Shown: in pieces, positions 4,549 to 33,845 of the stretch
Layout: every line of letters starts with the position of its first letter
How positions within the stretch are numbered: the stretch's first letter is position 1
Source of the DNA: Eubacteriales bacterium
GTDB lineage: Bacteria; Bacillota; Clostridia; Oscillospirales; CAG-272
Reading direction: 5' to 3'
Length of the DNA: 60,114 nucleotides
Assembly (NCBI GenBank): GCA_045123255.1
Contig: JBGVIN010000106.1
Span: forward strand, 1-60,114
The notes under the pieces: generated by a model
What the model saw: the letters and a program-made list of their open reading frames with translations, nothing else
The model's database searches: none
What the model was told of the DNA's origin: nothing
Translations under genes and position numbers: made by a program

Positions 4549-4633
4549 GATTATACACACATAGTGTGATGATATACAATGCTTTGCATTGATGAAATGC
4601 ACGCTATGCGTGGTGATATGCAACCTTCGGTTG
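4549..4633. repeat. Mini-hairpin array arm (linker RTGAWATR), 4 hairpins
   Basis: cacac/ata/gtgtg, caatgc/ttt/gcattg, cacgc/tat/gcgtg, caacc/ttc/ggttg joined by ATGATATA, ATGAAATG, GTGATATG. Confidence 0.85.
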
Positions 4634-4700
4634 ATTTTATTGTCTTTCATTAAAAGACAATAAAAAACGCGCCCGCTATTGCAGGCACGCCTTTATCAAA

Positions 4701-4797
4701 TTTTACGATGCGAAGCATCTTTTAACGCGAGTATCGCTCATAGCTTGGCTAAGCCAATCATCACGATGCGAAGCATCTTATAACGGTGCGAAGCACC
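4701..4797. repeat. Mini-hairpin array arm (7-nt linker), 5 hairpins
   Basis: gatgc/gaa/gcatc, gcga/gta/tcgc, ttggc/taa/gccaa, gatgc/gaa/gcatc, ggtgc/gaa/gcacc joined by TTTTAAC, TCATAGC, TCATCAC, TTATAAC. Confidence 0.85.
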
Positions 4798-4799
4798 TC

Positions 4800-6173
4800 T
4801 TATCTTTCGTTCATTGGAACGTAGGTCTTACGCTCGCATACGTTTTCGTAGCCGGGACGAATGATTTTTCCGTTTAATAGAAGCTCCTCGATACGGTGTG
4901 CGCTCCAGCCCGCAATTCTTGCAATTGCAAAGAGCGGTGTATAAAGCTCGATTGGCAAATCAAGCATACTGTAAACGAAGCCGCTATAGAAGTCAACGTT
5001 TGCTGAAACGCCCTTATATATCTTGCGCTCCTTGGCAATAACCTCAGGCGCGAGCTTCTCAATAAGCGCACAAAGCTTGTATTCCTTTTCAAGTCCCTTT
5101 TCCTTGGAAAGCTTTTCAACCCAGCCCTTGAAAACCTTGGCACGTGGGTCGGAAAGTGCGTAAACGGCGTGACCCATACCGTAGATAAGTCCCTTACCGT
5201 CGAACACCTCTTTACGCAAAATCTTAGTGAGGTATTCTCTTATCTCGTCCTCGTTTGTGTAGTCCTTTAAGTTCTTTTTGATATTATCTATCATTTCAAC
5301 AACCTTGATGTTAGCGCCGCCGTGACGTGGGCCCTTCAAGGAGCCGAGCGATGCCGCAATCGAGGAATACGTATCCGTACCCGACGAGGTAACAACGTGC
5401 GTTGTGAAGCTTGAGTTGTTTCCGCCACCGTGCTCTGCGTGTAAAACGAGTGCAAGGTCGAGTATTTTTGCTTCAAGCGGAGTAAACTTTGCATCCTTAC
5501 GAAGCATATAAAGAAGGTTTTCAGCAATGGAGAGTGAGGATTTCGGACGTCTTATGATAAGACTTTTCTTCTTTTCGTTATATTCATAGCTTCTGTATGC
5601 GTAAACTGCAAGAAGCGGAAATTCCGAAATAAGCTGCAAGCATTGACGAAGCACGTTTGGAATTGAGGTATCGTCCGCCTTGTCGTCGTATGCGTAAAGT
5701 GTCAAAACCGAGCGTGCAAGAATATTCATCATATCCTTACCCGTTGCCTTCATTATAGAGTCACGCACAAAGTTTTTCGGAAGTGAACGGTACTTTGTAA
5801 GAAGCGTGATAAACTCGTCAAGCTCCTGTTTTGTGGGAAGCTGACCGAACAAAAGAAGATATATCGTTTCCTCAAAGCCAAAGCGGTCGTCAGCGAGGAA
5901 GCCGTTTACAAGGTCATTAATGTTAACGCCACGGTAGAAAAGCTCGCCGTCCTTTGGAATTCTTGTTCCGTCCTCTAAAACGTCGAATGAGTTAATCTCT
6001 GAAATTGCGGTAAGACCTGCAACAACGCCCTTACCGTTTACGTCACGAAGTCCGCGCTTAACGTCAAATTTAACGTATTGCTCAGGCTCAATGGTTGTAT
6101 TTGAAATGCACATTTCAACGTATGAAATATGCTGCTGTGTAACCTTGGTTAGTTCTTTTTTTGCGGTTGGCAT
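4800..6173 (-). CDS. gltA: Citrate synthase (citrate/2-methylcitrate synthase family)
   Basis: LHAEHGGGNNS, GPRHGGAN, GMGHAVY..DPRA, NVDFYSG; start re-called at MPTAK after agggagg RBS. Confidence 0.9.
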   Translation of the reverse strand: MPTAKKELTKVTQQHISYVEMCISNTTIEPEQYVKFDVKRGLRDVNGKGVVAGLTAISEINSFDVLEDGTRIPKDGELFYRGVNINDLVNGFLADDRFGFEETIYLLLFGQLPTKQELDEFITLLTKYRSLPKNFVRDSIMKATGKDMMNILARSVLTLYAYDDKADDTSIPNVLRQCLQLISEFPLLAVYAYRSYEYNEKKKSLIIRRPKSSLSIAENLLYMLRKDAKFTPLEAKILDLALVLHAEHGGGNNSSFTTHVVTSSGTDTYSSIAASLGSLKGPRHGGANIKVVEMIDNIKKNLKDYTNEDEIREYLTKILRKEVFDGKGLIYGMGHAVYALSDPRAKVFKGWVEKLSKEKGLEKEYKLCALIEKLAPEVIAKERKIYKGVSANVDFYSGFVYSMLDLPIELYTPLFAIARIAGWSAHRIEELLLNGKIIRPGYENVCERKTYVPMNER

Positions 6174-6351
6174 ACCTTGCCCTCCCTTGCTTGGATAAAT
6201 TTGCGCCCTTTTGGCGCTATTCACTTTAGCGCTTTAACGCGTTAAAATAAAATATAGTCTATTCTATCATAGATTTGTGAATAAATTGTGAATTTTCAAA
6301 AATAATTTTATTTTTTTATACTTTTTTATGAAATTACGAAAAAACCCGATA

Positions 6352-7080
6352 TCAAAGGGGCTTTTTGGCAATTTGAGAGTTGTTTCTCGGATACGTATTA
6401 GGTGTATTTTTCACCTTTTTTATTATAATTATAGTTCTGTCAAGAATTTCGCCGCCGTCGGTTAAGGTGTAGTCACTTACTGTATCCACCGCTCCGCCAA
6501 GCTTTTCAATTGCCATACGTGCCTCGCTTAGCTCCTCGGGCGCAGTTTGCGATTTCATTGAAATAAAGACGCCACCGATTTTTAGAAGCGGCAAGCAAAG
6601 CTCGCAAAGCACGTTTAGTCGTGCAACGGCACGTGCCGTCACCACGTCAAAGCTTTCGCGATAGTCCTTATCTCTGCCAAGCTCCTCTGCGCGGCGCGAC
6701 GAAACGGACACGTTGTCAAGCCCCAAAAGCTCCGCTGTGCTTTCCACATACTTAACCTTTTTGGCGACGCTATCAACGCCTAAAACAGACACGTCCCCAC
6801 GCAAAATGGCAATAACGAGCGACGGGAAGCCACCGCCGCAGCCGATGTCGCAAAGCTTTGCGTTTTCCTTGATATAAGGCACACACGCGCTTGAATCGAC
6901 AAGGTGCTTGAGTATAACTCCGTCCTCATCCTTTATTGCCGTCAGGTTAAGATGCTCGTTAACCTCTAACATATGCGAGGAAAGCTTTTCTAAAATTTCA
7001 GCATTTTCCTCATTTATTATTCCCCTTGTTACCTCGTTTTTCTCGGCAACCGAAATTAGCTTATTTGTGAAATTGCTCAT
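6352..7080 (-). CDS. rsmG: 16S rRNA m7G527 methyltransferase RsmG (GidB)
   Basis: NLTAI..HLVDS, DIGCGGGFP, RAEE, ARAVA; start re-called at ATG 7080 overlapping the galK stop. Confidence 0.93.
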   Translation of the reverse strand: MSNFTNKLISVAEKNEVTRGIINEENAEILEKLSSHMLEVNEHLNLTAIKDEDGVILKHLVDSSACVPYIKENAKLCDIGCGGGFPSLVIAILRGDVSVLGVDSVAKKVKYVESTAELLGLDNVSVSSRRAEELGRDKDYRESFDVVTARAVARLNVLCELCLPLLKIGGVFISMKSQTAPEELSEARMAIEKLGGAVDTVSDYTLTDGGEILDRTIIIIKKVKNTPNTYPRNNSQIAKKPL

Positions 7081-8360
7081 TAAAGCACCCTTATAGCTCC
7101 GTCGGGTCTTATGCGTAATACGTGGCACGCACCCTTGCCGAACGCGGAGTCAATCACCTCACGGTACTTTTCAACAAGCTCCGTCTTGACGAATGCTTGA
7201 ATAGTGCCTGCAAAGCCGCCGCCGTGAACGCGGTACGCACATTTTTTGCCCGCAAGCACGGAATCAGTTATTGCAAGAGCCAATGAAAGACCCTGCTCCT
7301 GTACGTTTTTGGTTGTAAATACGTTTTGAAGATACATAAAGCTTGAATTGCCCGACTTAATTACAAATTTAAGGAAGCCGTCAACGTCGCCGCTTTTAAG
7401 TGCGCTTGCCTGCTTTGCAACTCTGTCGTTTTCATTAAAGAAGTGGATTGCACGCAATATAGCACGGTCACCGCATTTTTCTCTTAGCACCTGCACGTTT
7501 TCAAGCACGCTTTCCTTGTCAAGCTGTCTTAAATATTCCTTGCCGAAATATTTTGCCACACTCTTCATTTCATATGGAACAGATGCGTAATCTTCGTTTA
7601 AGTCTGCGTGGTTGCCACCTGTGTTTACAATGCAAAGAGCGTAGCCTGCGCCGCTTAAATCGAATGGGATTTTTTCAATAACAGGGTTTTTCGTATCGTC
7701 AAAATCGATATAAACAAAGCCGCCAACCGCGCACGCCATTTGGTCCATAAGTCCGCAGGGCTTGCCGAAAAATACGTTTTCGGAGTACTGTGCCATCTTG
7801 GCAATTTCTACGTTGTCCACCTTGCCGTCGTTATAGAAATGGTTAAGAATATTACCAACCATAACCTCAAATGCGGCAGATGAGGAAAGACCTGAGCCCT
7901 TGAACACGTTTGAGGTTGTATATGCACAGTAGCCACCTGTTTTTGCACCGTAGTTCTCAAAAGCGCGTGACATACCTGCAATCAAAGCGCCCGACTTAAA
8001 ATAGTCCGTCTCTCTTGGCTCTTTATATTCGTTAATGTTAACTGCGTCCTCGTCAAAGCCTTGGCTCTTGATTCTAATCACGCCGTCGTCGGTTTTTGCG
8101 GCAAATGCGATAATGTCAAGGTCTATTGAGCCTGCCATAACCTTACCGTGGTTGTGGTCTGTATGGTTGCCCGAAAGCTCGCTTCTGCCCGGAACTGAGA
8201 AAATTGAGGCTTCAACGTCGCCGTAATTTGACAAAAATTCCTTTGATGCCTCGGCATATCTTTGCTTTTGTGCCTCCACGTTTTCCTTGCCGTAAATTTT
8301 TGCAAGTGTCTCGTTTAATTCACCGTTTTCTATATACTTAATAAGCTCGTTGGTTTTCAT
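7080..8360 (-). CDS. galK: Galactokinase (GHMP kinase)
   Basis: PGRSELSGNHTDH, GSGLSSSAA, CGLMDQ, RVHGGGFAG. Confidence 0.85.
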   Translation of the reverse strand: MKTNELIKYIENGELNETLAKIYGKENVEAQKQRYAEASKEFLSNYGDVEASIFSVPGRSELSGNHTDHNHGKVMAGSIDLDIIAFAAKTDDGVIRIKSQGFDEDAVNINEYKEPRETDYFKSGALIAGMSRAFENYGAKTGGYCAYTTSNVFKGSGLSSSAAFEVMVGNILNHFYNDGKVDNVEIAKMAQYSENVFFGKPCGLMDQMACAVGGFVYIDFDDTKNPVIEKIPFDLSGAGYALCIVNTGGNHADLNEDYASVPYEMKSVAKYFGKEYLRQLDKESVLENVQVLREKCGDRAILRAIHFFNENDRVAKQASALKSGDVDGFLKFVIKSGNSSFMYLQNVFTTKNVQEQGLSLALAITDSVLAGKKCAYRVHGGGFAGTIQAFVKTELVEKYREVIDSAFGKGACHVLRIRPDGAIRVL

Positions 8361-9157
8361 TACTTAATATCTCCTTTAATTTTTATAATTTCTACGTTAA
8401 GCGGCTTGAAGGTATTCCTGTCAAATTCAAAAACCGCGCCGTTTAATTCTATTTCGCCCTCACTGAAATCAAACTTCGAGAGCATTTTTGTTTTTAGCTT
8501 AAAAATAACCGCTTCCTTTTTAACACCGAGGATGCTATCGCACGCACCGCACATTCCAAGGTCGGTTATATATGCACATTTGCCGTCTAAAATTTGCGCG
8601 TCATTCGTTTGCACGTGAGTATGCGTACCGAATGCACATGCGATTTTATCATCAAAATTGTAAGCAATTGCTTTTTTCTCACCCGTTGCCTCTGCGTGAA
8701 TATCAAGCACGCAAAAATCGTACTCACCGCTATTGCGCTCTAGTGCGCGCTCAACCGCCGAAAACGGGCTTTCGTTTGCATCCATATAGGACTGACCGAG
8801 AACGTTTAATACAAGCACGCGCACTCCGTCAACCTTAATCACAGTATCGCCGTGACCCGGGCATTCCGACGGAAAATTAAGCGGACGCAAAATATATTCC
8901 TCGTCGTCAAGATAGGAAAAAACGCTGCTCTTTCTGAAAACGTGATTTCCTGTTGTTATAACGTCAACGCCGCTATCAAAAATAGCCTTGGCGCTAACCT
9001 TGTCAATTCCGTTTGGCTCTGCTGAGTTTTCTCCGTTTGCAATAACCAAATCCGCACCAACCCTTGAGCGCAAGCGCCAAAGATTTTTGGAAAGATACTC
9101 AACCGCGCGCGGACCGACAATATCACCGATTGCTAAAATTTTAAGTGAATTTTTCAA
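8360..9157 (-). CDS. ymdB: YmdB-family metallophosphoesterase (TIGR00282-like)
   Basis: IGDIVG, ANGEN, TTGNH, DIHAEATGEK, GTHTHVQT, ITDLGMCG; TTG start. Confidence 0.9.
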   Translation of the reverse strand: MKNSLKILAIGDIVGPRAVEYLSKNLWRLRSRVGADLVIANGENSAEPNGIDKVSAKAIFDSGVDVITTGNHVFRKSSVFSYLDDEEYILRPLNFPSECPGHGDTVIKVDGVRVLVLNVLGQSYMDANESPFSAVERALERNSGEYDFCVLDIHAEATGEKKAIAYNFDDKIACAFGTHTHVQTNDAQILDGKCAYITDLGMCGACDSILGVKKEAVIFKLKTKMLSKFDFSEGEIELNGAVFEFDRNTFKPLNVEIIKIKGDIK

Positions 9158-9326
9158 AATAGGTTCTTTCTATGCTTCATTTAGATGCCACCAAGCAATA
9201 TTGAACTTGATTTGAAGCGACAAATAAAGACTTTTTTAAGATTTTTATTGAAATTTTTTTGATATAATTATATAATATAGTAAATATGTAAAAATTGCAA
9301 GTACTTTTGACAAAATAGGAGGAAGT

Positions 9327-11189
9327 ATGAAGGACGGATATATTAAGGTTAAGGCAGCTTCGCCAAAGCTCGCGGTTGGCGACGTGTCCTTTAACAAGGA
9401 AGAAATTGTAAAGGAAATCAAAAAAGCGATTAGCGAGGACGTTAAAATTCTCGTTTTACCCGAGCTTTCCTTGACGGGAAAGAGTGCAGGCGAACAGGCT
9501 TTTAGCGGCGTTATACTAAACGCCTCGGAGAAAGCGCTTGAAAACATCAAATTTGCGACACAGGGTAGCGATATTTTGATTTTTGTGGGCGCTCCGCTTC
9601 AGTACAAGGGCGCAAATTATTCCTGTGCGGTTGCAATAAAATCGGGTGAAATTTTAGGCGTAGTTCCAAAGATGGGAAAAATGCCTTATTTTAAGGATTT
9701 CATAAAAATTGGCAGCGAAAAATACCCATTCGGCACAGATTTACTCTTTAGCTGCAACGAAATGAAGGATTTAACTATCGGAGTTGTTGTTGGAGATGCA
9801 GTTACCAACCCCTCCCCCAAGGGATTTTTCCTTTGTGAAAACGGTGCAACGGTCATAGTCAATCTTTCGGGAAGCTACGAGCTTGTGTCAAGTGAGGAAA
9901 TTCGTCGCGCTTGCTTCGTTTCAAAGAGCTACGCAACGAAGAGCGCATATATTGTTGCTAATCCAAGCGAGGACGAGTCAACGACGTCAAACGTTTATGC
10001 CGCACATAATTTGATAGTGGAAAACGGAGATATTTTGGCAGAATCCAAGCCGTTTGAGAAAAAAACAGGCGACTGTGTGTCTGAAATTGACGTTTCTTAC
10101 CTTCGAAGCAAGCGCAACGCAATCGACACGCGTACAGAAGCAATAACCGATATTTCATTCTCATTCAAGCTCCAAAAAACAGCTTTAACAAGAAAAATTT
10201 CCAAAACGCCTTTTTTTCCTGAAGGCAAGGAAGAACTGAAAAAGCACTGTGAAAAGATCCTCACAATGCAGTCACGCTCCCTTGCCAAAAGGTTGACTGC
10301 ATCATATTCAAAGGGAATGGTGCTTGGCATTTCAGGCGGACTCGACTCCACTCTTGCCTTGCTTGCCTGCGTAAAATGCGCAGACTATCTTGGATGGGAA
10401 AGAGAAAAAATCACCGCTATCACAATGCCTTGCTTCGGCACAACGAAGCGCACCAAATCAAACGCAACTGAGCTTTGCCGCGCACTTGGCGTTACCTTGC
10501 GCGAAATTGATATTTTTGAAGCGACACGCATCCATTTTAGAGATATTGGCCACGACGAAAGCGACCACAGTGTAGTTTATGAAAACGCACAGGCAAGAGA
10601 ACGCACGCAAATTTTAATGGACGTGGCTAACTCCCTTGGCGCACTCGTTATCGGCACGGGAGACCTTTCCGAGGTTGCACTCGGTTGGTCAACGTACAAC
10701 GGCGACCATATATCAATGTATAACGTAAATTCCGCGCTTCCAAAGACCTTAATTCGACACGTGGTCGAGCATTTTGCAAAAAATCACGGTGGAGAGGTAA
10801 AGGAAATTCTCCTTGACATTCTTGATACTCCCGTTTCCCCCGAGCTTCTCCCTGCAAAGGAAAACGGAGAAATTGAGCAAAAGACAGAGGACATTGTCGG
10901 CCCGTACGAGCTGCACGATTTCTTCATTTATAATTTCGTTGGCAAAAAATTTGCTCCGTCAAAGATTTACCGTCTTGCTCTATACGCATTCAACGGAAAA
11001 TATGACGGCGAAGTAATCTATAAATGGCTCACGGTGTTTATAAAAAGATTTTTCACGCAACAATTCAAGCGCTCCTGCTCACCCGACGGCGTGCGTATCG
11101 GCTCGGTTTCACTTTCTAAGAATGACTTTAATATGGTGAGTGATTTCTCTTACAAGACTTTTCTTGAAGAATTAGATGAAAACAAGTAA
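9327..11189 (+). CDS. nadE: Two-domain NAD+ synthetase (glutaminase domain apparently degenerate)
   Basis: C-terminal SGGLDST, ENAQARER, TGDLSE, PVSPEL, FTQQFKRS; N-terminal nitrilase fold with PEL but no CED motif. Confidence 0.9.
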   Translation: MKDGYIKVKAASPKLAVGDVSFNKEEIVKEIKKAISEDVKILVLPELSLTGKSAGEQAFSGVILNASEKALENIKFATQGSDILIFVGAPLQYKGANYSCAVAIKSGEILGVVPKMGKMPYFKDFIKIGSEKYPFGTDLLFSCNEMKDLTIGVVVGDAVTNPSPKGFFLCENGATVIVNLSGSYELVSSEEIRRACFVSKSYATKSAYIVANPSEDESTTSNVYAAHNLIVENGDILAESKPFEKKTGDCVSEIDVSYLRSKRNAIDTRTEAITDISFSFKLQKTALTRKISKTPFFPEGKEELKKHCEKILTMQSRSLAKRLTASYSKGMVLGISGGLDSTLALLACVKCADYLGWEREKITAITMPCFGTTKRTKSNATELCRALGVTLREIDIFEATRIHFRDIGHDESDHSVVYENAQARERTQILMDVANSLGALVIGTGDLSEVALGWSTYNGDHISMYNVNSALPKTLIRHVVEHFAKNHGGEVKEILLDILDTPVSPELLPAKENGEIEQKTEDIVGPYELHDFFIYNFVGKKFAPSKIYRLALYAFNGKYDGEVIYKWLTVFIKRFFTQQFKRSCSPDGVRIGSVSLSKNDFNMVSDFSYKTFLEELDENK

Positions 11190-11203
11190 AAGCGTGGCGG
11201 GTT

Positions 11204-11284
11204 AAATGGCGAAGCCAATTTATGAAGGCAGTGCTTTCAATTCGTGTACGTAGTGCAATTTATGATGCGCAAGCATCAATTTAC
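11204..11284. repeat. Mini-hairpin array arm (linker AATTYRT), 4 hairpins
   Basis: ggc/gaa/gcc, gaaggc/agt/gctttc, gtac/gta/gtgc, gatgc/gcaa/gcatc joined by AATTTAT, AATTCGT, AATTTAT and ending AATTTAC. Confidence 0.82.
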
Positions 11285-11288
11285 TAAA

Positions 11289-11314
11289 AAAGCCGATGAA
11301 AACTCATCGGCTTT
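11289..11314. terminator. Terminator between convergent nadE and oadA
   Basis: aaagccgatga-aaac-tcatcggcttt. Confidence 0.75.
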
Positions 11315-11321
11315 AAATTTT

Positions 11322-12725: not shown

Positions 12726-12819
12726 TTTAATACCTTTCATCTATCTAAGGGTTGACAGATTAAGAGCAAAAACCGTCGATTTTTAAGCCGAGGTATACCT
12801 TAATATGTCGCCCTTTGTT

Positions 12820-14779: not shown

Positions 14780-15192
14780 TTTTTCACTCCTTTTTGCTCT
14801 TTTGAGTAAGAATATTTTTGCAAAAAAGCTCCAATCTGCAAATCATTTTTTGCATAATCTTGCGTGTTTTTCACACCGCATTTTGAAAGCTCTTTTCCAA
14901 AAACCCCATTCTAACCCATTTTACACTATTGTATCACACATTTTCCGAAAAGTAAAGACTATTATTATATAATAATGTAAAAAATTTGCAAATATCAAGT
15001 AAATTTGATTTTTTATGTGCGAGTTGATTTTTTCTTTTTTCGGTGTTATAATTTATGTAGGTGATGAAAATGAGCAACAATCTTCCCAAAAGGAAAAATA
15101 ATAGACTTAGCCAATTCCATTATAGTAGCGGCTATTCATATTTTATAACCGTATGCACGAAGGATAGAGCGCGTATATTATCGGAAATAACC

Positions 15193-15219
15193 GTAGGGAC
15201 AGGCGTCCTCGACTGTCCG
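15193..15219 (+). repeat. GTAG-type REP inside the RAYT ORF (left)
   Basis: GTAG-ggacag-gcgtcctcga-ctgtcc-g; encodes VGTGVLDCP. Confidence 0.85.
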
Positions 15220-15359
15220 CTGATAAAATTAACGTATTTTGGAGAAATTGTAGATAAATATATAAATCAATTGAATGATTTTTATAAGCACATCTCGGTT
15301 GACCAATATGTAATAATGCCAAATCATATTCATATGTTAATAACTGTACGTGCCGAAAA

Positions 15360-15386
15360 CGGACAGTCGGGGACGCCTGTCCCTAC
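15360..15386 (-). repeat. GTAG-type REP inside the RAYT ORF (right, inverted)
   Basis: cggacagtcggggacgcctgtccctac is the reverse complement of 15193-15219 at 26/27; encodes GQSGTPVPT. Confidence 0.85.
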
Positions 15387-15584
15387 AAGTAAAAACTCCG
15401 TTGTTTCCTCGTTTGTTTCAACGCTTAAACGGTTTTCCAACAAAGAATGCGGCTTCAACCCTTGGCAACGCTCGTTTTACGACCACGTTATAAGAAATCG
15501 GCAGGACTATGACGAAACAAGAAAATATATTTACGAAAACCCACAAAATTGGGATAAGGACGAGCTTTTTTCAATCGACAACTA

Positions 15585-15613
15585 AAAATGCACGGCGAAA
15601 CGCCGTGCATTTT
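15585..15613. terminator. Bidirectional terminator between RAYT and alaS
   Basis: aaaatgcacggcg-aaa-cgccgtgcatttt. Confidence 0.85.
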
Positions 15614-20419: not shown

Positions 20420-20633
20420 ATAAATTGTCGTAAAGCGACATGAATTGATGCAAGCATCATAAATTGTGCCTTTGGCACATAAATTGATTGCTCTGCAATC
20501 ATGAAATATTTATTTAATTCATATCATTAGCCGATTCATGCTTTACAGAAGTAATTCATGACCGCAGGTCAATTCATGCCGAAGGCAATTCATGCAACCC
20601 TGTTGCAATTCATGACGCAAAGCGTCAATTCAC
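20420..20633. repeat. Two-armed inverted mini-hairpin array (linker AATTCAT / ATRAATT), 4+5 hairpins
   Basis: Left: gtcgt/aaa/gcgac, gatgc/aa/gcatc, gtgcc/ttt/ggcac, gattgc/tct/gcaatc with ATGAATT/ATAAATT. Right: gctt/tacag/aagt, gacc/gca/ggtc, gcc/gaa/ggc, gcaac/cct/gttgc, gacgc/aaa/gcgtc with AATTCAT. Confidence 0.9.
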
Positions 20634-20649
20634 TCCCAAAGGATTAATT

Positions 20650-20979
20650 ATGGAAAACAAAAGATTTACAAAAAACGACAACGGCTTTATATGCGAAGCG
20701 TGCGGACACGAGGTTTTGCCACTTGGCTACACCTCGCGCAACCACTGTCCGAAATGTCTTGCCTCAAAGCACGTTGATATAATGCCGGGTGACAGGCAAA
20801 ATCCGTGTGGCGGAGTTATGGACGCCATAAAGGTAGAGCCTGACCCCAAAAAGGGCTACATTATCATCCATAAGTGCCGCAAATGCGGAGAAATCAAGAG
20901 AAACCGCGCGGCGCACGAGGCAAAGGTGCAGCCTGACGATATAAAGAAGCTTATCAAGCTTACCGCAGGCAGGCTTTGA
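20650..20979 (+). CDS. RNHCP domain-containing protein
   Basis: F.CxxCG...RNHCPxCLxSxHVD..PGDR..C...HxCxxCG. Confidence 0.88.
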   Translation: MENKRFTKNDNGFICEACGHEVLPLGYTSRNHCPKCLASKHVDIMPGDRQNPCGGVMDAIKVEPDPKKGYIIIHKCRKCGEIKRNRAAHEAKVQPDDIKKLIKLTAGRL

Positions 20980-20984
20980 TAGAT

Positions 20985-21869
20985 ATGAACGAGCAAAAAA
21001 ACGAAAAAGGATGCACCCTGTGTCCGAGAAAATGCAATATTGACAGAAATTTATTGCGCGGTGTCTGTGGCGCTCCCGACGAAATTGTGGTGTCGAAAAT
21101 TATGCTTCACAAATGGGAAGAGCCGTCAATAAGCGGCACAAACGGAAGCGGAGCTATTTTCTTTTCGGGTTGTCCCTTAAAATGCGTTTACTGTCAAAAC
21201 AAAAAAATCAGTCACAAGTGCCGCGGTAAAAAAATAACGGTTAGCGAGCTTGCAAGCGAAATCTTAAAGCTACAAAAAATGGGCGCACATAACATAAATT
21301 TAGTCACCCCCACGCATTACGCCGACAAAATCATCGAGGCACTTTCCTTAATCAAGGGCGAGCTTAAAATCCCCGTGGTTTATAATACCTCCGGCTACGA
21401 AAGCGAGGAGCAAATTGAAAAAATTGCCGAGTACGTGTCTGTTTTCCTAACTGATATAAAGTATTTTTCACCCGACGCCTCTCTCAAATACTCACGCGCT
21501 AAGGACTACTACGTGGTTGCAAAGAGAGCGTTTGCAAAAATGCTTGAAACAGTCGGTACGCCAAAATATGATGAAAGCGGAATGATGATAAGCGGCGTTA
21601 TACTACGCCATTTAGTCTTGCCCTCTCTGCGCCGTGACTCCATTGCGCTTTTAGAGGATATTGCAAAAAGCTTTGACACCTCTTCCTTCGTTCTTTCCTT
21701 AATGAGCCAGTACACGCCCGAGTTTTGCGACGACGGCTTTCCCGAATTAAAGCGCCGTTTAACCACCTTTGAATATAACAGCGTACTTTCACGCGCAACC
21801 GAGCTTGGCTTCACGGGATATATGCAGGATTTTTCCTCGTCATCAACAAGCTTCACACCCGAATTTTAA
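20985..21869 (+). CDS. Radical SAM protein, PflX-like
   Basis: N-terminal CTLCPRKC, HxWEEP, CxxxCxxC (CPLKCVYCQN), NINLVTPTH, RHLVLP; start could be 20976. Confidence 0.82.
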   Translation: MNEQKNEKGCTLCPRKCNIDRNLLRGVCGAPDEIVVSKIMLHKWEEPSISGTNGSGAIFFSGCPLKCVYCQNKKISHKCRGKKITVSELASEILKLQKMGAHNINLVTPTHYADKIIEALSLIKGELKIPVVYNTSGYESEEQIEKIAEYVSVFLTDIKYFSPDASLKYSRAKDYYVVAKRAFAKMLETVGTPKYDESGMMISGVILRHLVLPSLRRDSIALLEDIAKSFDTSSFVLSLMSQYTPEFCDDGFPELKRRLTTFEYNSVLSRATELGFTGYMQDFSSSSTSFTPEF

Positions 21870-25319: not shown

Positions 25320-25330
25320 TATAATATCTA

Positions 25331-25361
25331 AAAAGGATGTCACCGTGGTGGCATCCTTTTT
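25331..25361 (+). terminator. Intrinsic terminator
   Basis: aaaaggatgtcacc-gt-ggtggcatcctttt. Confidence 0.8.
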
Positions 25362-25428
25362 CTTGTTAATGAAGAGAGCGCCCGAAATTCAGACGCTCTC
25401 TTTTTTGAAAATTTTATTTGGAGTTATT

Positions 25429-25656: not shown

Positions 25657-25676
25657 CCCTTCCCCCTCCTTTGTTT

Positions 25677-27974: not shown

Positions 27975-28233
27975 TTTTCTTTTCCCCCTTCTCGCTCTCG
28001 CTTGACGTCTTTTCTACAAGCACCATTTTTGCGTCGTCCTTTCGTACGCTAAGCTCATAGCCGCGCACCGTAAGCTCAAACGGGTCACCGAGCGGCGCCA
28101 CCTTTCTTACGTAAATTTCAACGCCCTTGGTAATTCCAAGGTCCATAATGCGGCGTCTGATAGGTCCCTCGCCCTCTATTCTGAGCACCTTGACCGTATC
28201 GCCGACCCTTGCATTTTTTAAGGTCATTTCCAC
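27964..28233 (-). CDS. feoA: FeoA
   Basis: RRIMDLGIT.G..I...APLGDP...VRGYELSVR; start GTG 28233 or ATG 28227. Confidence 0.95.
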   Translation of the reverse strand: MEMTLKNARVGDTVKVLRIEGEGPIRRRIMDLGITKGVEIYVRKVAPLGDPFELTVRGYELSVRKDDAKMVLVEKTSSESEKGEKKNVD

Positions 28234-28254
28234 ACCATTCCTTCCTTTGATGGA

Positions 28255-28308
28255 GTTAGTCTTGACTAACTACGCGGTTAGTTTAGCATAACCAACCCGT
28301 TTTGTCAA
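28255..28308 (-). promoter_or_regulatory. feoAB promoter with tandem 16-bp GTTAG-N6-(C/A)TAAC operator palindromes
   Basis: TTGACA(28308-03)-17-TGcTAAACT(-10 at 28285-80); gttagtcttgactaac 28255-70 and gttagtttagcataac 28277-92. Confidence 0.7.
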
Positions 28309-28407
28309 GTGCTTTTTGGAAATTTTTTCGAATTTTTTTATATGTTAAAAAGTCTTAGTTAGATACATCATATGAGTAGTATATTTATAAATAAGAGGAT
28401 TTTTCAA

Positions 28408-28436
28408 TTGACAAAAAATTTTTTAAGGGTTATAAT
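28408..28436 (+). promoter_or_regulatory. Sigma-A promoter for copA
   Basis: TTGACA-17 bp-TATAAT. Confidence 0.75.
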
Positions 28437-28470
28437 ATCCTTGAAGAAAACGGCGGAAGGGGGAATTAAA

Positions 28471-30948
28471 ATGCAAAAATTTAACGTCACGGGAATGAGC
28501 TGTGCAGCTTGCTCGGCTCGTGTTGAAAAAGCAATTTCATCAGTTTCGGGTGTTACCGACTGCTCAGTAAGCCTTTTAACGGGTGAAGCAACGGCAGATG
28601 GTACGGCATCGAGCGAAAGCATAATAGATGCAGTTAAAAAAGCAGGCTACGGTGCAAGTGTTGCAAGCACCCAAACGCTTGAGGATGCGCTATTTCGCGA
28701 TACTGAAACGCCGAAATTAAGAAAGCGTCTTATCATTTCGTCCTGTCTGCTCCTTGTGCTTATGTACTTTTCTATGGGCAGCCACCTCGGCATTATCCCT
28801 GCGTTTTTGTCGAGGGAGTATTTGGTTTTAGCATTTTTGCAGCTTACACTTTCTCTTTCCATAATTATAATAAATAGGAAGTTTTTCATAAACGGAGCAA
28901 GGGGAGTTATAAAGCGCTCTCCAAATATGGACACGCTTGTTTCTCTTGGCTCAGGCATTTCGTTTATTTACAGCCTCGTTATGCTCGTTTTGATGTGCGT
29001 GCGCCACGGCGATGCGGAATTTTTAGAACAAACGCTTCACAAGGGGCTGTATTTTGAGTCCGCCGCTATGATTTTGGTGCTTATCACTCTTGGAAAAATG
29101 CTTGAATCAATTTCTAAGAAAAAAACGACAAGCGCGCTTAAAAATCTTATCAAAATGAAGCCGAAAACCGCACTTGTTTTAAGAGATGGGAAGGAAACGG
29201 AGGTTTCAGTATCGGAAATAAAAATAGGCGATGAGTTTATTATCAAGGCGGGCGGAATTATACCCGTTGACGGATTTGTTATATCAGGGGAAGCATCAAT
29301 TGACGAGTCTTGCCTGACGGGTGAAAGCATACCCTGTGACAAATCAAACGGAACGAAGATTTACGCCTCAACCGTATGTAAATCAGGATATATCGTTGCG
29401 CGTGCCGAGGAAATCGGCGAAAAAACCGCAATTTCAAAAATAATCAAAACCGTGTCGGACGCGCTCGGCACAAAAGCACCTATTGCCAAAATTGCCGACA
29501 CAGTGTCTGGGTTTTTCGTTCCGGTTGTTATTTTAATAGCGATAATTTCAACCGTAATTTGGCTCTTATGCGGCAGTGAATTTGCATACGCGCTTGAGCG
29601 CGGAATTTCGGTTCTCGTTATCAGCTGTCCGTGTGCCTTAGGCCTTGCAACACCCGTTGCTATAATGGTCGGCGGCGGTATAGGTGCAAAAAAAGGAATT
29701 CTTTTCAAGGATGCAGGCAAGCTTGAGCTTCTCGGCAAATGTGAATGGGTGCTTCTTGATAAAACAGGTACAATTACACAGGGTGTGCCCGAAATTACCG
29801 ATATTATCCCCTTTGGTATAGACGAAAACGAGCTTCTTTCATATGCATACACTCTTGAAAAAATGAGTGAGCATCCGCTTGCAAGGGCGGTTATCGACTA
29901 CGCCGAGGAAAATTCCGTTAAATCCTTTGAAATCAGTAGCTTCAAAACTCTTATGGGAAGTGGCGTTTGCGGTGAAATTGACAAAAATACAGTATTCGGC
30001 GCAAGCTATTCGTACACAATTTCAAAAATCGGCGAAAGCAGAGAGCTAAAAGCGCATTTCGAGCGTCTTTCAAACGAGGGAAAAACACCGTTATTTTTCG
30101 TAAAACGCGACACTCCCCTCGGCATAATTGCCGTGCGCGACAAAATCAAGGACGATAGCAGGAGCGCTATCAGCGCGCTAAAGGAAATGGGACTTACCAC
30201 GTCTATGGTGACGGGCGACAACGAAAAAACCGCGTGTGCAATTGCCAAAAGCGTCGGTATAGATCACGTCATTTCGGAGGTAATGCCAAACGAAAAAGCC
30301 GCCGAGGTTACAAAAGCCAAATCAAACGGCAGGGTTATAATGGTTGGTGACGGAATTAACGACGCGCCAGCTCTTGCAACGGCTGACGTCGGTGTTGCCA
30401 TAGGTGCAGGCACGGACGTTGCAATAGATACCGCTGACGTGGTGCTTGTAAAAAGCTCGCTTTCCGACCTTGTTACCGCTATAAAGCTAAGCCGTGCAAC
30501 GCTAATAAACATTAAGGAAAACCTGTTTTGGGCATTCATTTATAACGTTATCGGCATTCCGCTTGCCGCAGGCGCATTTATTGCCGTATCCGGCGGAAAA
30601 CTCACACTTACCCCGATGCTTGGCGCTCTTTTGATGAGCTTTTCAAGCGTAAGCGTGGTTCTAAACGCATTAAGACTAAACTTATTTAACGAAAAGAAGC
30701 ATTATAAGCGCAGAAAAAAGAATATAAAGAAAAAGGAGAAAAGGGAAATGAACGTAATATTAAAGGTTGAGGGAATGATGTGCCCACACTGTGAGGCGCA
30801 CGTAAAGAAAGCACTTGAAGCCATAGACGGCGTATCCTTGGCAGTGGCAAGCCACACAAAGGGCGAGGTTGAAATAACGCTTTCAAAGGACGTTTCTATT
30901 GACGTTTTGAAAAAGACTGTAACCGAGCAGGGATATACCGTAAAATAA
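28471..30948 (+). CDS. copA: Cu(I)-type P1B ATPase with N- and C-terminal HMA domains
   Basis: GMSCAAC, TGES, CPC, DKTGT, SEHPL, GDGINDAP, YN and MxxSS, C-terminal GMMCPHC; start re-called at MQKF. Confidence 0.93.
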   Translation: MQKFNVTGMSCAACSARVEKAISSVSGVTDCSVSLLTGEATADGTASSESIIDAVKKAGYGASVASTQTLEDALFRDTETPKLRKRLIISSCLLLVLMYFSMGSHLGIIPAFLSREYLVLAFLQLTLSLSIIIINRKFFINGARGVIKRSPNMDTLVSLGSGISFIYSLVMLVLMCVRHGDAEFLEQTLHKGLYFESAAMILVLITLGKMLESISKKKTTSALKNLIKMKPKTALVLRDGKETEVSVSEIKIGDEFIIKAGGIIPVDGFVISGEASIDESCLTGESIPCDKSNGTKIYASTVCKSGYIVARAEEIGEKTAISKIIKTVSDALGTKAPIAKIADTVSGFFVPVVILIAIISTVIWLLCGSEFAYALERGISVLVISCPCALGLATPVAIMVGGGIGAKKGILFKDAGKLELLGKCEWVLLDKTGTITQGVPEITDIIPFGIDENELLSYAYTLEKMSEHPLARAVIDYAEENSVKSFEISSFKTLMGSGVCGEIDKNTVFGASYSYTISKIGESRELKAHFERLSNEGKTPLFFVKRDTPLGIIAVRDKIKDDSRSAISALKEMGLTTSMVTGDNEKTACAIAKSVGIDHVISEVMPNEKAAEVTKAKSNGRVIMVGDGINDAPALATADVGVAIGAGTDVAIDTADVVLVKSSLSDLVTAIKLSRATLINIKENLFWAFIYNVIGIPLAAGAFIAVSGGKLTLTPMLGALLMSFSSVSVVLNALRLNLFNEKKHYKRRKKNIKKKEKREMNVILKVEGMMCPHCEAHVKKALEAIDGVSLAVASHTKGEVEITLSKDVSIDVLKKTVTEQGYTVK

Positions 30949-30954
30949 GAATTT

Positions 30955-30986
30955 AGCTCTCAAGCGTATGGCTTGGGAGCTTTTTT
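30955..30986 (+). terminator. Intrinsic terminator of copA
   Basis: agctctcaagc-gtatg-gcttgggagct plus T tract. Confidence 0.75.
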
Positions 30987-31051
30987 CTGAGAAATCCACC
31001 AAGAGTAGATAAAGCTCAACCACCCATCGTGGGGATATAGACTAATTTTAT

Positions 31052-31080
31052 TTGACAAAGCCGTTTAGGTGTGATATAAT
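31052..31080 (+). promoter_or_regulatory. Sigma-A promoter for the DtxR-family regulator
   Basis: TTGACA-17 bp-TATAAT with extended TG. Confidence 0.75.
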
Positions 31081-31121
31081 GAAATCAAATTAAGATAGCA
31101 TTTACAAGGGAGGGCGCGGAT

Positions 31122-31499
31122 ATGATAATCAAGGAATCGGCAGAAAACTATCTTGAATCTATTTTTATGCTTAAAAATCAACTCGGTCGCGTTCGCTCAA
31201 TCGACATTGCAAACGACCTTTCTGTTTCGAAGCCGAGTGTATCCGTTGCTATGAAAAACTTCCGCGAGGAGGGATATATCACCGTTGATGTTGACGGATA
31301 TATCGACTTGACGGAAAAGGGGCTTGAAATTGCAAATCGCGTTTACGAAAGACACGAGGTTATTGCAAAGGCGCTTGAAGCGCTTGGTGTCAGCCGTCAA
31401 ACAGCACTTGACGATAGCTGTAAAATCGAGCACGTTATAAGTGACGAAAGCTTTTCAAAAATAAAGGATTTTCTCAATTCAAAATCAAATAACAAATAA
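31122..31499 (+). CDS. DtxR/MntR-family metal-dependent repressor (no SH3 domain)
   Basis: ESAENYLE, SKPSVS HTH, LTEKG...YERHE, CKIEH. Confidence 0.92.
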   Translation: MIIKESAENYLESIFMLKNQLGRVRSIDIANDLSVSKPSVSVAMKNFREEGYITVDVDGYIDLTEKGLEIANRVYERHEVIAKALEALGVSRQTALDDSCKIEHVISDESFSKIKDFLNSKSNNK

Positions 31500-31517
31500 T
31501 TAAAAAGGAGTGTTTTT

Positions 31518-32372
31518 ATGGACGAAATCTTAAAAACCGACGCTTGCACACTTGAAAACCCAGAAGCGTGCAACGAAAGCGTCGAGGCATCAGCTGAGCA
31601 AGCCGAAGCTACTGAATACTGTGACTGCTGTGCTCAAAAAGAATCCGTAAGTGAAGACGGCGAGCCGAAGGAAAACGTTGTTTCGGTTAGCAAGCTTTTC
31701 AAGGATTACGGCAAGCTTATGGCATTAAACGGAGTTGATTTGTCACTTACATCAGGAAAAATCGTTGGTCTTCTCGGCCCTAACGGCAGCGGAAAGACAA
31801 CTCTTATTAAAATTCTTGCAGGTCTTTTAACAGCAACACAAGGAGAAGCAAAAATTTGCGGCAAGGAAATCGGCGAGGAAACGAAGGCTATCGTTTCTTA
31901 CCTACCCGAGCGTCCTTATTTCGGCTCTTGGATGAGAGTTGAAGAGTGCCTTGATTTCTTTGGCGACTTTTATAAGGACTTCGACCGCGAGCTTGCAGAA
32001 AAAATGCTAATCGACCTTGAAATTGACAAGACAAAGAAGCTTCGTACGCTTTCAAAGGGTACGCGCGAAAAGGTTCAGCTCATTTTAGTTATGTCAAGAC
32101 GTGCAAAGCTATACTTGCTTGACGAGCCTATTGCCGGCGTTGACCCTGCGGCGCGCGACTATATTCTCGAAACAATTATATCAGCATACAACAGAGAGGC
32201 AACCGTCGTTATCTCAACTCACTTAATTTCCGACATCGAAAACGTGCTTGACGAATATATCTTCATTAAGCACGGAAACATCGTTGAATTTGGAAGCGCA
32301 AAGAATTACGAAGAGAAAAACGGCGAAACGCTCGATATGCATTTCAGGGAGGTGTTCAAGTATGTTCGCTAA
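31518..32372 (+). CDS. ABC transporter ATP-binding protein with acidic Cys-rich N-terminal extension
   Basis: GPNGSGKTT, LSKG, LLDEP, STH; aaggag RBS supports the long start. Confidence 0.92.
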   Translation: MDEILKTDACTLENPEACNESVEASAEQAEATEYCDCCAQKESVSEDGEPKENVVSVSKLFKDYGKLMALNGVDLSLTSGKIVGLLGPNGSGKTTLIKILAGLLTATQGEAKICGKEIGEETKAIVSYLPERPYFGSWMRVEECLDFFGDFYKDFDRELAEKMLIDLEIDKTKKLRTLSKGTREKVQLILVMSRRAKLYLLDEPIAGVDPAARDYILETIISAYNREATVVISTHLISDIENVLDEYIFIKHGNIVEFGSAKNYEEKNGETLDMHFREVFKYVR

Positions 32373-33312
32373 ATTATTTAAGCACGATATGAGAAACACA
32401 ATGCGTATTGGCTTACCGCTTCTTATCGGTGCTATCGCGCTTGTGATTTTTGGAATTTTCAATAATCTTTTTGCCTCATTTACACAGGATTTATCGCTAA
32501 AAATGTTTGAATGGACGGTCGACGGCACAATAGACGAGCGATTAGCTGTTGTGCTTTCCATTTTGATATCACTCACCTCAATGATTTCAACCTTCTTTTC
32601 ATCAATAGGCACAATGGTGCTTTCCGCAACCTATATTGCAATGGTTATTATCAACCTTGTAAACTTCTATAAGAACCTCATCACCGACGAGGGATATCTT
32701 ATGTTTACGTTGCCTGTACGCCCTATTGAAATCCTTTCATCAAAGCTTGTAAACGCGTGCATTTGGAATTTTTCCGCATACGTTATCGTTCTTACCGGCG
32801 CATTGCTCCAAGGCGCGCCAACCTATATCCGTGCAATTGCACTTATGATTGAAACGAACAAGGAGCTTGGCTTAGAGGTTGAAATTTGGCCTGTTATTCA
32901 AGAAACGTTTGGAATTTCAGGAATCAACCCAATGCTTCTTGTCCTTATGCTCGTGCTTGCTATCGCGGTTTCAATTTGCATAGTTATTGCAACACCTGCA
33001 TTTATGTTCTTTACAATTTACCTCGGCGGCGTTGTTGCAAAGAAGCACAAGCTCATTGCAGGCGCAGGATTTACGCTTCTCGGCTACGAAATTTACTCAA
33101 TCCTTGAAACAATTATCGCTTTCTTCAGCATCAGCTGTGCCTTGATTCCTGTTTTCTTTGTAAAAAACGTCACAGGTGCTGAAATACTTAACTACGTATT
33201 TATAATCCTTAGCATAATTCTTTCACTTTCAGTAGTGCTACTCATCGCAGCTATCGTTATCTTCTTCATCCTTACCAAGTGGTTAATGACAAAGAAGCTC
33301 AATTTGCCGTAA
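32362..33312 (+). CDS. ABC-2-type permease
   Basis: MFAKLFKHD start with ggaggt RBS, EGYLMFTLPV..ILSSKL motif, about 6 TM helices. Confidence 0.82.
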   Translation: MFAKLFKHDMRNTMRIGLPLLIGAIALVIFGIFNNLFASFTQDLSLKMFEWTVDGTIDERLAVVLSILISLTSMISTFFSSIGTMVLSATYIAMVIINLVNFYKNLITDEGYLMFTLPVRPIEILSSKLVNACIWNFSAYVIVLTGALLQGAPTYIRAIALMIETNKELGLEVEIWPVIQETFGISGINPMLLVLMLVLAIAVSICIVIATPAFMFFTIYLGGVVAKKHKLIAGAGFTLLGYEIYSILETIIAFFSISCALIPVFFVKNVTGAEILNYVFIILSIILSLSVVLLIAAIVIFFILTKWLMTKKLNLP

Positions 33313-33334
33313 TATAAAACACAAGCAAACGTAA

Positions 33335-33366
33335 AAAAGAGCAGGCATTTTTGTGCTTGCTCTTTT
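33335..33366 (+). terminator. Intrinsic terminator
   Basis: aaaagagca-g-gca...tgc-t-tgctctttt. Confidence 0.6.
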
Positions 33367-33412
33367 ACAATATTTAGTTTTTCAAAAAATTTCAAAAATT
33401 TTTATTTTCCTA

Positions 33413-33441
33413 TTGACAAACCGTTTTTTATATGATACAAT
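33413..33441 (+). promoter_or_regulatory. Sigma-A promoter of the tRNA operon
   Basis: TTGACA-17 bp-TACAAT with extended TG. Confidence 0.8.
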
Positions 33442-33463
33442 AAGGTGCGTTGCAGGACAATAT

Positions 33464-33538
33464 GCTGGTGTGGCTCAATGGCAGAGCAGCTGATTTGTAA
33501 TCAGCAGGTTGATGGTTCGACTCCGTTCACCAGCTCCA
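33464..33538 (+). tRNA. tRNA-Thr(TGT)
   Basis: Acceptor gctggtg/caccagc, anticodon arm gctga-tttgtaa-tcagc, TTCGACT T-loop, encoded CCA. Confidence 0.96.
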
Positions 33539-33556
33539 AGTCCTGCAACTTTATAA

Positions 33557-33641
33557 GGGGGATTTCCCGAGCGGCCAAAGGGGGCAGACTGTAAATCTGT
33601 TGTCGACGACTTCGCTGGTCCGAATCCAGCATCCCCCACCA
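33557..33641 (+). tRNA. tRNA-Tyr(GTA), T-loop variant
   Basis: Acceptor gggggat/atccccc, anticodon arm gcaga-ctgtaaa-tctgt, long variable arm, T-loop reads TCCGAAT, encoded CCA. Confidence 0.93.
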
Positions 33642-33675
33642 AAAAATACCGAGAACTCTGTTCTCGGTATTTTTT
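33642..33675 (+). terminator. Terminator of the tRNA operon
   Basis: aaaaataccgagaac-tct-gttctcggtattttt. Confidence 0.88.
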
Positions 33676-33678
33676 TAT

Positions 33679-33845
33679 CCATTGCGAAAGCAATGGCATA
33701 TCATCACGCTTTTGCGTGTATATCATCGCCGAAGGTGTATATCATCAACCGTAGGTTGCATTCTTTCGCAATGATGATATACAATTTCTGCGAAATTGGT
33801 GATATACAAAACTTTGTTTTGATGATATACACGCCTTACGGCGTG
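33679..33845. repeat. Two-armed inverted mini-hairpin array (linker TATATCAT / RTGATATA), 4+3 hairpins
   Basis: Left: ccattgc/gaaa/gcaatgg, cacgc/tttt/gcgtg, cgcc/gaa/ggtg, caacc/gta/ggttg. Right: caatttc/tgc/gaaattg, caaaac/ttt/gttttg, cacgcc/ttac/ggcgtg. Confidence 0.9.

Follow-up and report, generated by a model that had tools for sequence, protein, structure and literature searches.

Arrays of tagged hairpins in a Eubacteriales genome are evolutionarily coupled to genes of the IVP four-helix-bundle family

Repetitive extragenic palindromic (REP) sequences are built on a conserved palindrome with a 5' tetranucleotide of the GTAG/CGTC type, and the gene for the REP-associated tyrosine transposase (RAYT) is flanked by its own REP (Nunvar 2010; Bertels and Rainey 2011; Ton-Hoang 2012). 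Intervening sequences (IVSs) of 23S rRNA, such as that of Coxiella burnetii, carry an S23p/IVP open reading frame (ORF) (PMC4990558), and the Gut-1 RNA motif (RF01706), found only in human gut samples, has been proposed to be a non-coding RNA (Weinberg et al. 2010, PMC2864571). Here we analyze series of short perfect palindromes that alternate with near-constant linkers, which we call tags, in a window of 60,114 nucleotides (nt) from a Eubacteriales bacterium (contig JBGVIN010000106.1 of GCA_045123255.1, our contig C106 in a 2.0-Mb, 125-contig assembly that is 93% complete). The initial annotation had proposed these arrays as single-stranded substrates of a RAYT, of a four-helix-bundle protein, or of both. 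The two candidate genes do lie in the window, a RAYT-like gene of the Y1 (HUH) type at 15061-15585 and an IVP gene at 33922-34269, both on the plus strand. We find that the arrays are evolutionarily coupled to IVP genes and not to RAYT genes.

A strict scan for at least three perfect hairpins joined by mutually similar linkers of 4-10 nt yields 76 arrays in the genome and 1 in a first-order Markov copy; the arrays exceed chance. They fall into tag families: family A has the tag YATATCAY followed by CA...TG stems, family B ATTCA followed by TG...CA stems, family C TATGGAAT, family D ATATCAC followed by G...C stems, with a D2 variant TCATAAC/TCATCAC, and family E ATTTCAC/A. Only the linkers are conserved; the stems vary, 204 of the 298 hairpins being distinct. 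The repeat unit is 16-23 nt long, and arms contain from 3 to 11 hairpins with a steady fall-off; proximal arms linked to IVP genes have 4-5 tags and gene-less arms 3-11. The arms have no fixed size, and their size is compatible with the pentameric state of IVP relatives, as had been suggested from arms of three to five hairpins, but not diagnostic of it. Arrays are enlarged by tandem duplication, examples being five identical CAACC.ttgc.GGTTG units in a row (C104:81771-81894) and a three-hairpin super-unit repeated three times (C81:2523-2700).

The connection to the four-helix-bundle protein, for which the initial annotation could show no link, is now apparent from adjacency, co-occurrence, covariation of tag and IVP clade, and joint horizontal transfer. 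All four IVP paralogues of the genome have a mirrored array directly upstream, at a distance of no more than 250 nt, and the tag differs by paralogue, being TATATCAT twice, ATATCAC once, for the paralogue on contig C40, and TCATAAC once. Among distinct IVP genes sampled across the order, 79 of 121 (~65%) are preceded by three or more tags within 320 nt. These upstream arrays end mostly 30-240 nt, typically 50-90 nt, before the start of the IVP model match, and few arrays are found downstream. For co-occurrence we used 301 genomes of the order, mostly metagenome-assembled genomes (MAGs), in which the presence of arrays was scored by two tag-specific patterns and one covariance model. An IVP gene is present in 33 of the 35 genomes with family-A arrays compared to 105 of the 266 without (odds ratio [OR] 25, p 2e-10; Cochran-Mantel-Haenszel test [CMH] by family, p 9e-4), in 19 of the 21 genomes with family-B arrays (OR 12.9, p 1.5e-5), and in 108 of the 129 genomes with RF01706 matches compared to 30 of the 172 without (OR 24, p 6e-32). 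When only the clade with at least 79% identity to the IVP of the window (IVP-A) is set against family-A arrays, the OR is 42 (p 2e-9). Co-inheritance inflates these association statistics, which nevertheless survive stratification by family. The same comparison for RAYT genes gives 15 of 35 versus 91 of 266 genomes for family A (p 0.35; CMH by family, p 0.49), 9 of 21 genomes for family B (p 0.48), and 50 of 129 versus 56 of 172 genomes for matches to the Gut-1 model (p 0.27). Across the three array definitions, RAYT ORs are thus 1.3-1.4 (p 0.27-0.49), and the co-occurrence proposed for both proteins is seen for IVP (ORs 25, 13 and 24) but not for RAYT. Likewise, no RAYT gene was found within 8 kb of any of 80 family-A array loci from other species.

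Tags also follow the phylogeny of the IVPs. Placed on the IVP tree, the tag labels require 14 changes, with a minimum of 11 and a mean of 53 for shuffled labels; none of 200 shuffles was as low. YATATCAY arrays accompany IVPs at least 79% identical to that of the window, TATGGAAT/TATGTAAT tags a sister clade at 60-67% identity, and family-B tags a clade at ~50% identity. The tree also holds a 24-member IVP clade without hairpin arrays. At the one locus of this clade that we read (L009), inverted tandem heptamers bracket the IVP gene, with four copies of ATGCAGA upstream (1455-1485) and four of the TCTGCAT type downstream (1843-1873), suggesting that short repeated words accompany the IVP family generally. 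This locus shares with the tag-hairpin arrays an IVP gene accompanied by inverted arrays of a 7-nt word. It differs in that its arms bracket the gene, whereas families of the Gut-1 type follow each word with a mini-hairpin and place both arms before the gene. The IVP gene of L009 fits tightly between two other genes, with the stop codon of the first before it and the ribosome-binding site of the second after it.

Alignment of IVP-A loci reveals a common plan. The 3' end of a tRNA gene is followed by a long terminator hairpin with its T-run, the sequence TTTAT, a head hairpin, three tags with hairpins, a center that is the inverted 5' half of the head, three reverse tags with hairpins, a -35/-10 promoter and the IVP gene. 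Complementarity between head and center covaries between modules, and in 10 orthologous IVP-A arms, compensatory changes on both sides have preserved pairing at 11 of 18 stem pairs. In the families with 7-nt tags, the reverse arm comes first, and in most of them the tag-sense arm ends directly on a TTGAAA/TTGACT-like -35 box. Terminator, two arms, promoter and IVP gene together make up a cassette of ~0.65 kb, whose DNA is 87-89% identical between genomes of different bacterial families. Identity begins at the terminator on the tRNA side and ends 0-60 nt from the IVP stop codon. As the IVP tree is also discordant with taxonomy, we conclude that this ~0.65-kb unit moves horizontally. A tRNA gene precedes 8 of the 66 array loci of the genome. 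Carriage by phages or plasmids was considered and set aside, as no plasmid with a close homologue was found and the only phage candidates are two unverified "Bacteriophage sp." contigs from human feces. These contigs, L239 (MT835815.1) and L240 (MT835590.1), contain complete tRNA-terminator-array-IVP cassettes, and one of them has a 65-bit Gut-1 match; both may be bacterial DNA or prophage edges.

Comparison with Gut-1 shows that the published motif is one arm of such a tag-hairpin/IVP unit. The RF01706 consensus consists of four GUGAAAU tags with three short hairpins of variable stem between them, which corresponds to a single ATTTCAC-family arm when read from the complement of the stable-loop strand. 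Gut-1 matches above the gathering threshold lie directly upstream of IVP genes at three loci (60.2, 65 and 52.8 bits in L083, L240 and L035). In the window, the arms fall short of the gathering score of 50, with 27.9 bits at 20582-20655 (minus strand) and 24.5 bits at 4567-4645 (plus strand), and they therefore belong to sister families of Gut-1 rather than to Gut-1 itself. The likeness extends from an identical architecture to occurrence in uncultured gut bacteria, position upstream of IVP genes and co-occurrence with IVP. The differences lie in the tags, which are YATATCAY, AATTCA and TCATCAC in the window, and in the modeling of Gut-1 as RNA on the strand opposite the stable-DNA-loop strand. 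Our literature search found no paper that links PF05635 with hairpin arrays, or Gut-1 with a protein gene.

The IVP of the window, a protein of 115 amino acids (aa), matches PF05635 with 68.1 bits (cut-off 33.8) and TIGR02436 with 77.2 bits (cut-off 24). Its AlphaFold2 model is a four-helix bundle with a predicted local distance difference test score of 94.6. The best PDB matches are the pentameric 2rld (template modeling [TM] score 0.85, 38% identity) and 2gsc, followed by Avd of diversity-generating retroelements (DGRs; 4dwl) and the DGR ribonucleoprotein 8ub7; the homologues 2rld, 2gsc and 4dwl crystallize with five chains. Avd shares the four-helix-bundle fold (TM about 0.75-0.8) and is a pentameric barrel that binds nucleic acid. 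Identity to Avd is, however, 14-16%, the gene downstream of the IVP gene encodes an EEP nuclease, and there is no template/variable repeat pair. A DGR-like retro-mechanism was rejected because a search of the whole genome for reverse transcriptase (PF00078) gave no match. With 23S rRNA IVSs, the cassette has in common PF05635 itself, the form of a small selfish one-ORF cassette with inverted-repeat arms, and horizontal transfer. Unlike them, it resides after tRNA terminators (tRNA-Tyr in the window) or in spacers and not in rRNA, its arms are arrays of tag and hairpin that both lie upstream of the gene, it is equipped with a promoter of its own, and many of its copies are without the gene. Two array-linked IVP genes are pseudogenes: a second IVP-A copy in the genome (C47:19412-19756), 86% identical to that of the window, has TAA at codon 11, and the gene at L272:1435-1804 has an in-frame TAA inside an RKSSSS motif.

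The hairpin loops obey a strand rule. With every arm oriented so that the tag reads ...TCA(Y), the tag-sense triloops of the genome are GNA in 72 cases and TNC in 3 (binomial p 4e-18). A C-G pair closes 181 of 183 triloops, loops given as C-G-closed GNA triloops amount to 61%, and UNCG loops are absent from the tag-sense strand. The motifs cGNABg, cCNNGg and gCNNGc are further stable mini-loops, reportedly going back to Nakano et al. 2002. Counting these together with cGNAg and cGNNAg (PMC13037366, PMC3201870), stable DNA mini-loop motifs occur in 129 of 298 hairpins on the tag-sense strand and in 16 of 298 on the opposite strand, with counts of 49 versus 3 per arm and 67 versus 13 for unique hairpins. 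Mini-hairpins of the GCGNAGC and GCGNNAGC types are extraordinarily stable in DNA (PMC13037366, PMC3201870). The picture of a dispersed, oriented and mostly gene-less family with C-GNA-G loops on one defined strand, first drawn from this window, is thus borne out by the tabulation of loop against linker strand across the genome.

Direct reading of the non-coding stretches of the window places the arrays at three loci with five arms, one locus fewer than the four initially annotated; positions 25.3-25.7 kb, read for a fourth, contain no comparable array. Locus 3 (33679-33845), which belongs to the complete cassette, consists of mirrored YATATCAY arms between the tRNA-Tyr terminator and the IVP gene. 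The terminator hairpin, its T-run and the TTTAT that opens the module occupy 33645-33678 (plus strand). The tag-sense family-A arm (33679-33758, plus) begins with the head hairpin CCATTGC.gaaa.GCAATGG and continues with three YATATCAT tags and hairpins with loops tttt, gaa and gta. The center (33759-33773, plus; cattCTTTCGCAATG) is an inverted copy of the 5' half and loop of the head hairpin, with which it covaries between modules. The reverse arm (33774-33845, minus) has three RTGATATA tags and the hairpins CAATTTC, CAAAAC and CACGCC, with loops tgc, ttt and ttac. Between the array and the IVP start codon lies a promoter-like site, TTGAAT-17-TATAAT with a TG extension (33873-33901, plus), in the same position as in related modules. 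When 33679-33850 is folded as one strand with DNA parameters, the left tags are predicted to pair with the right tags between local hairpins (-44.9 kcal/mol), and such tag-tag pairing would fold the mirrored array into a ladder of four-way junctions. A variant tag TATCTCAT in one arm is answered in several modules by ATGAGATA in the opposite arm.

The other two loci are without an IVP gene. In locus 1 (4556-4798), a reverse YATATCAY arm is joined to a TCATCAC/TYATAAC arm across an AT-rich hairpin. The family-A arm (4556-4633, minus) has the tag ATGATATA, which reads YATATCAY on the minus strand, and four hairpins, CACAC, CAATGC, CACGC and CAACC. The central hairpin, read from the sequence as ttattgtctttcattaaaagacaataa (4634-4667), separates the two unlike arms between convergent genes. 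The second arm (4707-4798, plus), which is D2-like, contains five G...C hairpins with loops gaa, gta, taa, gaa and gaa and the tags TTTTAAC, TCATAGC, TCATCAC and TTATAAC, and it runs up to the stop codon of a citrate synthase gene (4800-6224, minus). Locus 2 (20426-20633) has mirrored AATTCA arms between mnmE and an RNHCP gene. Its reverse family-B arm (20426-20501, minus; tags TGAAT/TAAAT, four TG...CA hairpins) begins 19 nt past the mnmE stop codon, and its tag-sense arm (20543-20633, plus; tag AATTCA(T), five hairpins) ends with a tag that adjoins the ribosome-binding site of the RNHCP gene (ATG at 20650). Directly downstream of mnmE, the RNHCP-domain gene (109 aa) overlaps a radical-SAM gene (297 aa), and this pair (20650-21869) is conserved in the genus.

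Gene-less arrays of this kind are roughly ten-fold more numerous than the complete form. An adjacent IVP-A gene is found at 7 of the 80 family-A array loci from other species, the rest (~90%) being gene-less; MAGs from gut and rumen labeled Acutalibacteraceae, Oscillospiraceae, Eubacteriales and Christensenellaceae account for most family-A arrays, which are also present in Yanshouia hominis (L155). The family-B array in the mnmE-RNHCP spacer is shared with the closest congener, whose MnmE is 91% identical, and there the tags are the same and the stems entirely different. Comparison of these sequences indicates that stems turn over much faster than point substitution. Seven further congeners lack the array and have a spacer of only 10-35 nt, which identifies the array as an insertion into a probable operon. 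In two congeners (L244 and L245), the mnmE-RNHCP spacer is filled by a different small repeat (...GATTTCTCGACAAAGCTCGGAATGAC...).

Taken as a whole, we regard it as somewhat more probable than otherwise that the arrays are DNA repeats that combine a short, rapidly changing palindrome with a constant tag of 5-8 nt, for which the cassette with an IVP gene is the complete form and the gene-less copies are non-autonomous. We observe the repeats and their strand asymmetry, their adjacency to and co-occurrence with IVP, the covariation of tag and clade, the transfer of array and gene together, polymorphism of insertions, and stems kept up by compensatory changes. In the complete form, a rho-independent terminator would precede two inverted arms, whose last tag would be followed, directly or at a short distance, by the -35 box of a sigma-70-type promoter and then by a single gene of the 23S-rRNA-IVS/S23p/Avd family. 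This form would move horizontally as a unit and would often lie just after tRNA genes. Gene-less arrays, including loci 1 and 2 of the window, would be copies that colonize intergenic and intra-operon spacers. As for the protein, we see about an even chance that the tag words are bound by IVP, probably in a folded single-stranded or cruciform state of the DNA, that IVP autoregulates, and that gene-less arrays are its non-autonomous copies. An Avd-like ring oligomer of IVP may recognize the tags, probably where transiently single-stranded or cruciform DNA displays them on the tag-sense strand between extruded C-GNA-G mini-hairpins, and IVP could thereby control its own promoter and mark the dispersed copies. 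Because no dedicated enzyme co-occurs with the arrays, spreading and stem turnover would draw on host replication or recombination.

Several observations weigh against this model. IVP is only mildly basic (isoelectric point 8.4) and has no catalytic motif, and to our knowledge binding data within the IVP family are limited to Avd of DGRs. IVP is absent from 21 of the 129 genomes with Gut-1-like arrays, with still none found in the 10 that were rechecked at E<=1, and these genomes include near-complete assemblies, one of them 99% complete in 9 contigs. In our own 93%-complete assembly, 18 family-B, 3 family-C and 4 family-E arms are without a cognate IVP gene. Tag-clade covariation and co-occurrence could stem from linkage and common descent alone. 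Generic nearest-neighbor DNA parameters in ViennaRNA give no energy difference between the strands, so the single-strand argument draws on the published special-loop stabilities only, and the tag-sense strand has no replication-strand (GC skew) bias (28 versus 35). Finally, arrays inside operons must be transcribed, and a role as RNA is therefore possible. The initial annotation had held that arrays in genomes lacking both proteins would speak against its proposal; about 14 of the 129 array-bearing genomes are of this kind. Neither protein is therefore needed for arrays to persist, and arrays can persist without an IVP gene, as REPs and miniature inverted-repeat transposable elements do without theirs.

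The suggestion that the arrays are REP-like single-stranded hairpins recognized or moved by the HUH transposase at 15061-15585, or by a paralogue, is one that we now consider highly improbable. The likeness to REP/RAYT systems, including bacterial interspersed mosaic elements (REPINs), is real, in that both consist of dispersed extragenic palindromes in clusters and inverted pairs, are strand-asymmetric, and are mostly gene-less with few copies beside a dedicated small gene. The protein in the window has an HUH-like HIH motif and the conserved Tyr of SFYDH, scoring 24.6 bits against PF01797 (cut-off 23) and 69.4 bits against NF047646 (cut-off 80). The genome has both the most arrays in our sample and six matches to the REP-transposase family model, three of which are close paralogues of the window gene. 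Paralogue C9 is flanked by a classical REP with GTAG and a GC-hairpin, REP1, so that a true REP/RAYT pair exists here, and some family-A arrays have REP1 joined to their head through a constant junction. REP1 adjoins only 6 of the 46 family-A arms, however, and was rejected as a general driver of their expansion. The REPs flanking C9 and C2 (REP2 in the latter) are not tag-hairpin arrays, and the window gene has no palindromic repeats upstream and only a unique terminator hairpin downstream. The arrays reverse the REP design, with a conserved linker and a variable stem, most of them lack a GTAG/CGTC head, and their partner gene encodes a non-enzymatic four-helix bundle rather than an HUH enzyme. 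Five array-rich genomes (G249, G206, G283, G275 and G095) have no RAYT-like gene. On the evidence of co-occurrence, adjacency and flanks, RAYT was rejected as the partner, and as a general mechanism it is largely refuted. The arrays are independent of RAYT, and the RAYT of the window belongs to a separate, classical REP system. The C9 gene (C9:141-677, minus), whose flanking GTAG-type REP is GTAGGGGCGATTCACGAATCGCCC, contains two in-frame REP copies inside its ORF (GAIHESP and RAIRESP), and the GATTTCTCGACAAAGCTCGGAATGAC-type repeat mentioned above forms a tail beside REP1-array composites on contigs C2, C10 and C55.

Three further alternatives were considered. The arrays may have arisen neutrally, through slippage during replication or through recombination at tagged palindromes, with IVP cassettes merely carrying them or landing in them, perhaps because cassettes and arrays both favor terminator-proximal spacers after tRNA genes; IVP itself would then have no effect on the arrays. 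The abundance of gene-less arrays, the persistence of arrays without IVP, the orphan B, C and E arms, growth by tandem duplication and the lack of a co-occurring enzyme would all fit. We nonetheless judge this unlikely, since tags are invariant and stems fully replaced between genomes with 91%-identical MnmE, which argues for selection or templating on the tag; moreover, tag families track IVP clades, array and gene transfer jointly as a 0.65-kb unit, the strict strand rule and compensatory stem changes argue for a constrained structure, and the array-free IVP clade has heptamer arms instead. That the arms act as structured RNA, as mRNA stabilizers, terminators or protein sponges in the way proposed for Gut-1, with IVP as an RNA-binding partner comparable to Avd in DGR ribonucleoproteins, is rather improbable. 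Such a role would accord with the cataloguing of Gut-1 as a likely non-coding RNA (PMC2864571), with transcription of the array in the probable mnmE-RNHCP operon, with RNA binding by Avd in 8ub7-type complexes, and with an excess of convergent (19) over divergent (9) genes flanking the arrays. IVP-linked arrays, however, lie between a terminator and the IVP promoter, outside any obvious transcript, and their role there is most simply one at the DNA level. The GNA triloop with its C-G closure is a stability motif specific to DNA, UNCG loops are missing from the tag-sense strand, the Rfam strand of Gut-1 is the one opposite the stable loops, and both arm orientations occur at one locus. We hold it to be similarly improbable that IVP is an ordinary transcription factor reading tags in duplex DNA, at its own promoter and at neighboring genes, with the palindromes as spacers that never form hairpins. 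The abutting of the last tag and the -35 box in most 7-nt families, the resemblance of inverted arms to operator dyads, the heptamer-armed relatives without hairpins and the nearest-neighbor energies favoring neither strand all agree with such operator arrays. Against them, units of 16-23 nt do not phase the tags on the helix, the spacers are always self-complementary with compensatory changes, and a pure duplex reader would not impose a strand-specific C-GNA-G loop rule.

A broader version of the cassette model, which we put forward tentatively and consider doubtful, is that PF05635 IVPs and short-word arrays form one widespread class of selfish bacterial cassette whose word is read by a ring-shaped oligomer, that gut and rumen Clostridia display this word between hyper-stable C-GNA-G mini-hairpins of DNA, that Gut-1 is a DNA cis-element of the cassette, and that dispersed arrays behave like REP/RAYT systems with a non-enzymatic protein that recruits host replication or recombination. 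If the cassette model is true, it would offer one explanation for the PF05635/TIGR02436 "four helix bundle protein" family, whose thousands of genes have no known role except as Avd of DGRs, for the Gut-1 motif, described in 2010 as an RNA of unknown function, and for the tag-hairpin repeats that break many gut metagenome assemblies. In place of an untestable "some trans factor" there would be a defined pair of protein and DNA, for which the pairing of different tag families with different IVP clades provides natural specificity controls. The model would also mean that a REP-like economy of repeats does not require an HUH transposase, and it warns that covariation-based discovery of RNA motifs can pick up hairpin repeats that act at the level of DNA.

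One neighboring gene deserves mention. An EEP-family nuclease gene (34266-34937, plus) overlaps the stop codon of the IVP gene with its start (ATGA) and was considered as the missing enzyme. It was rejected in that role because 119 other IVP loci lack it, as do 80 genomes of the order, of which 40 are array-rich; it is therefore a local associate rather than a general enzyme. Orthologues with 71-76% identity lie directly behind the tRNA-array-IVP cassettes of three other tag families (L266, L268, L270 and L272), so that the nuclease gene follows IVP in four tag families in all, among metagenome contigs, with the ATGA overlap in three.

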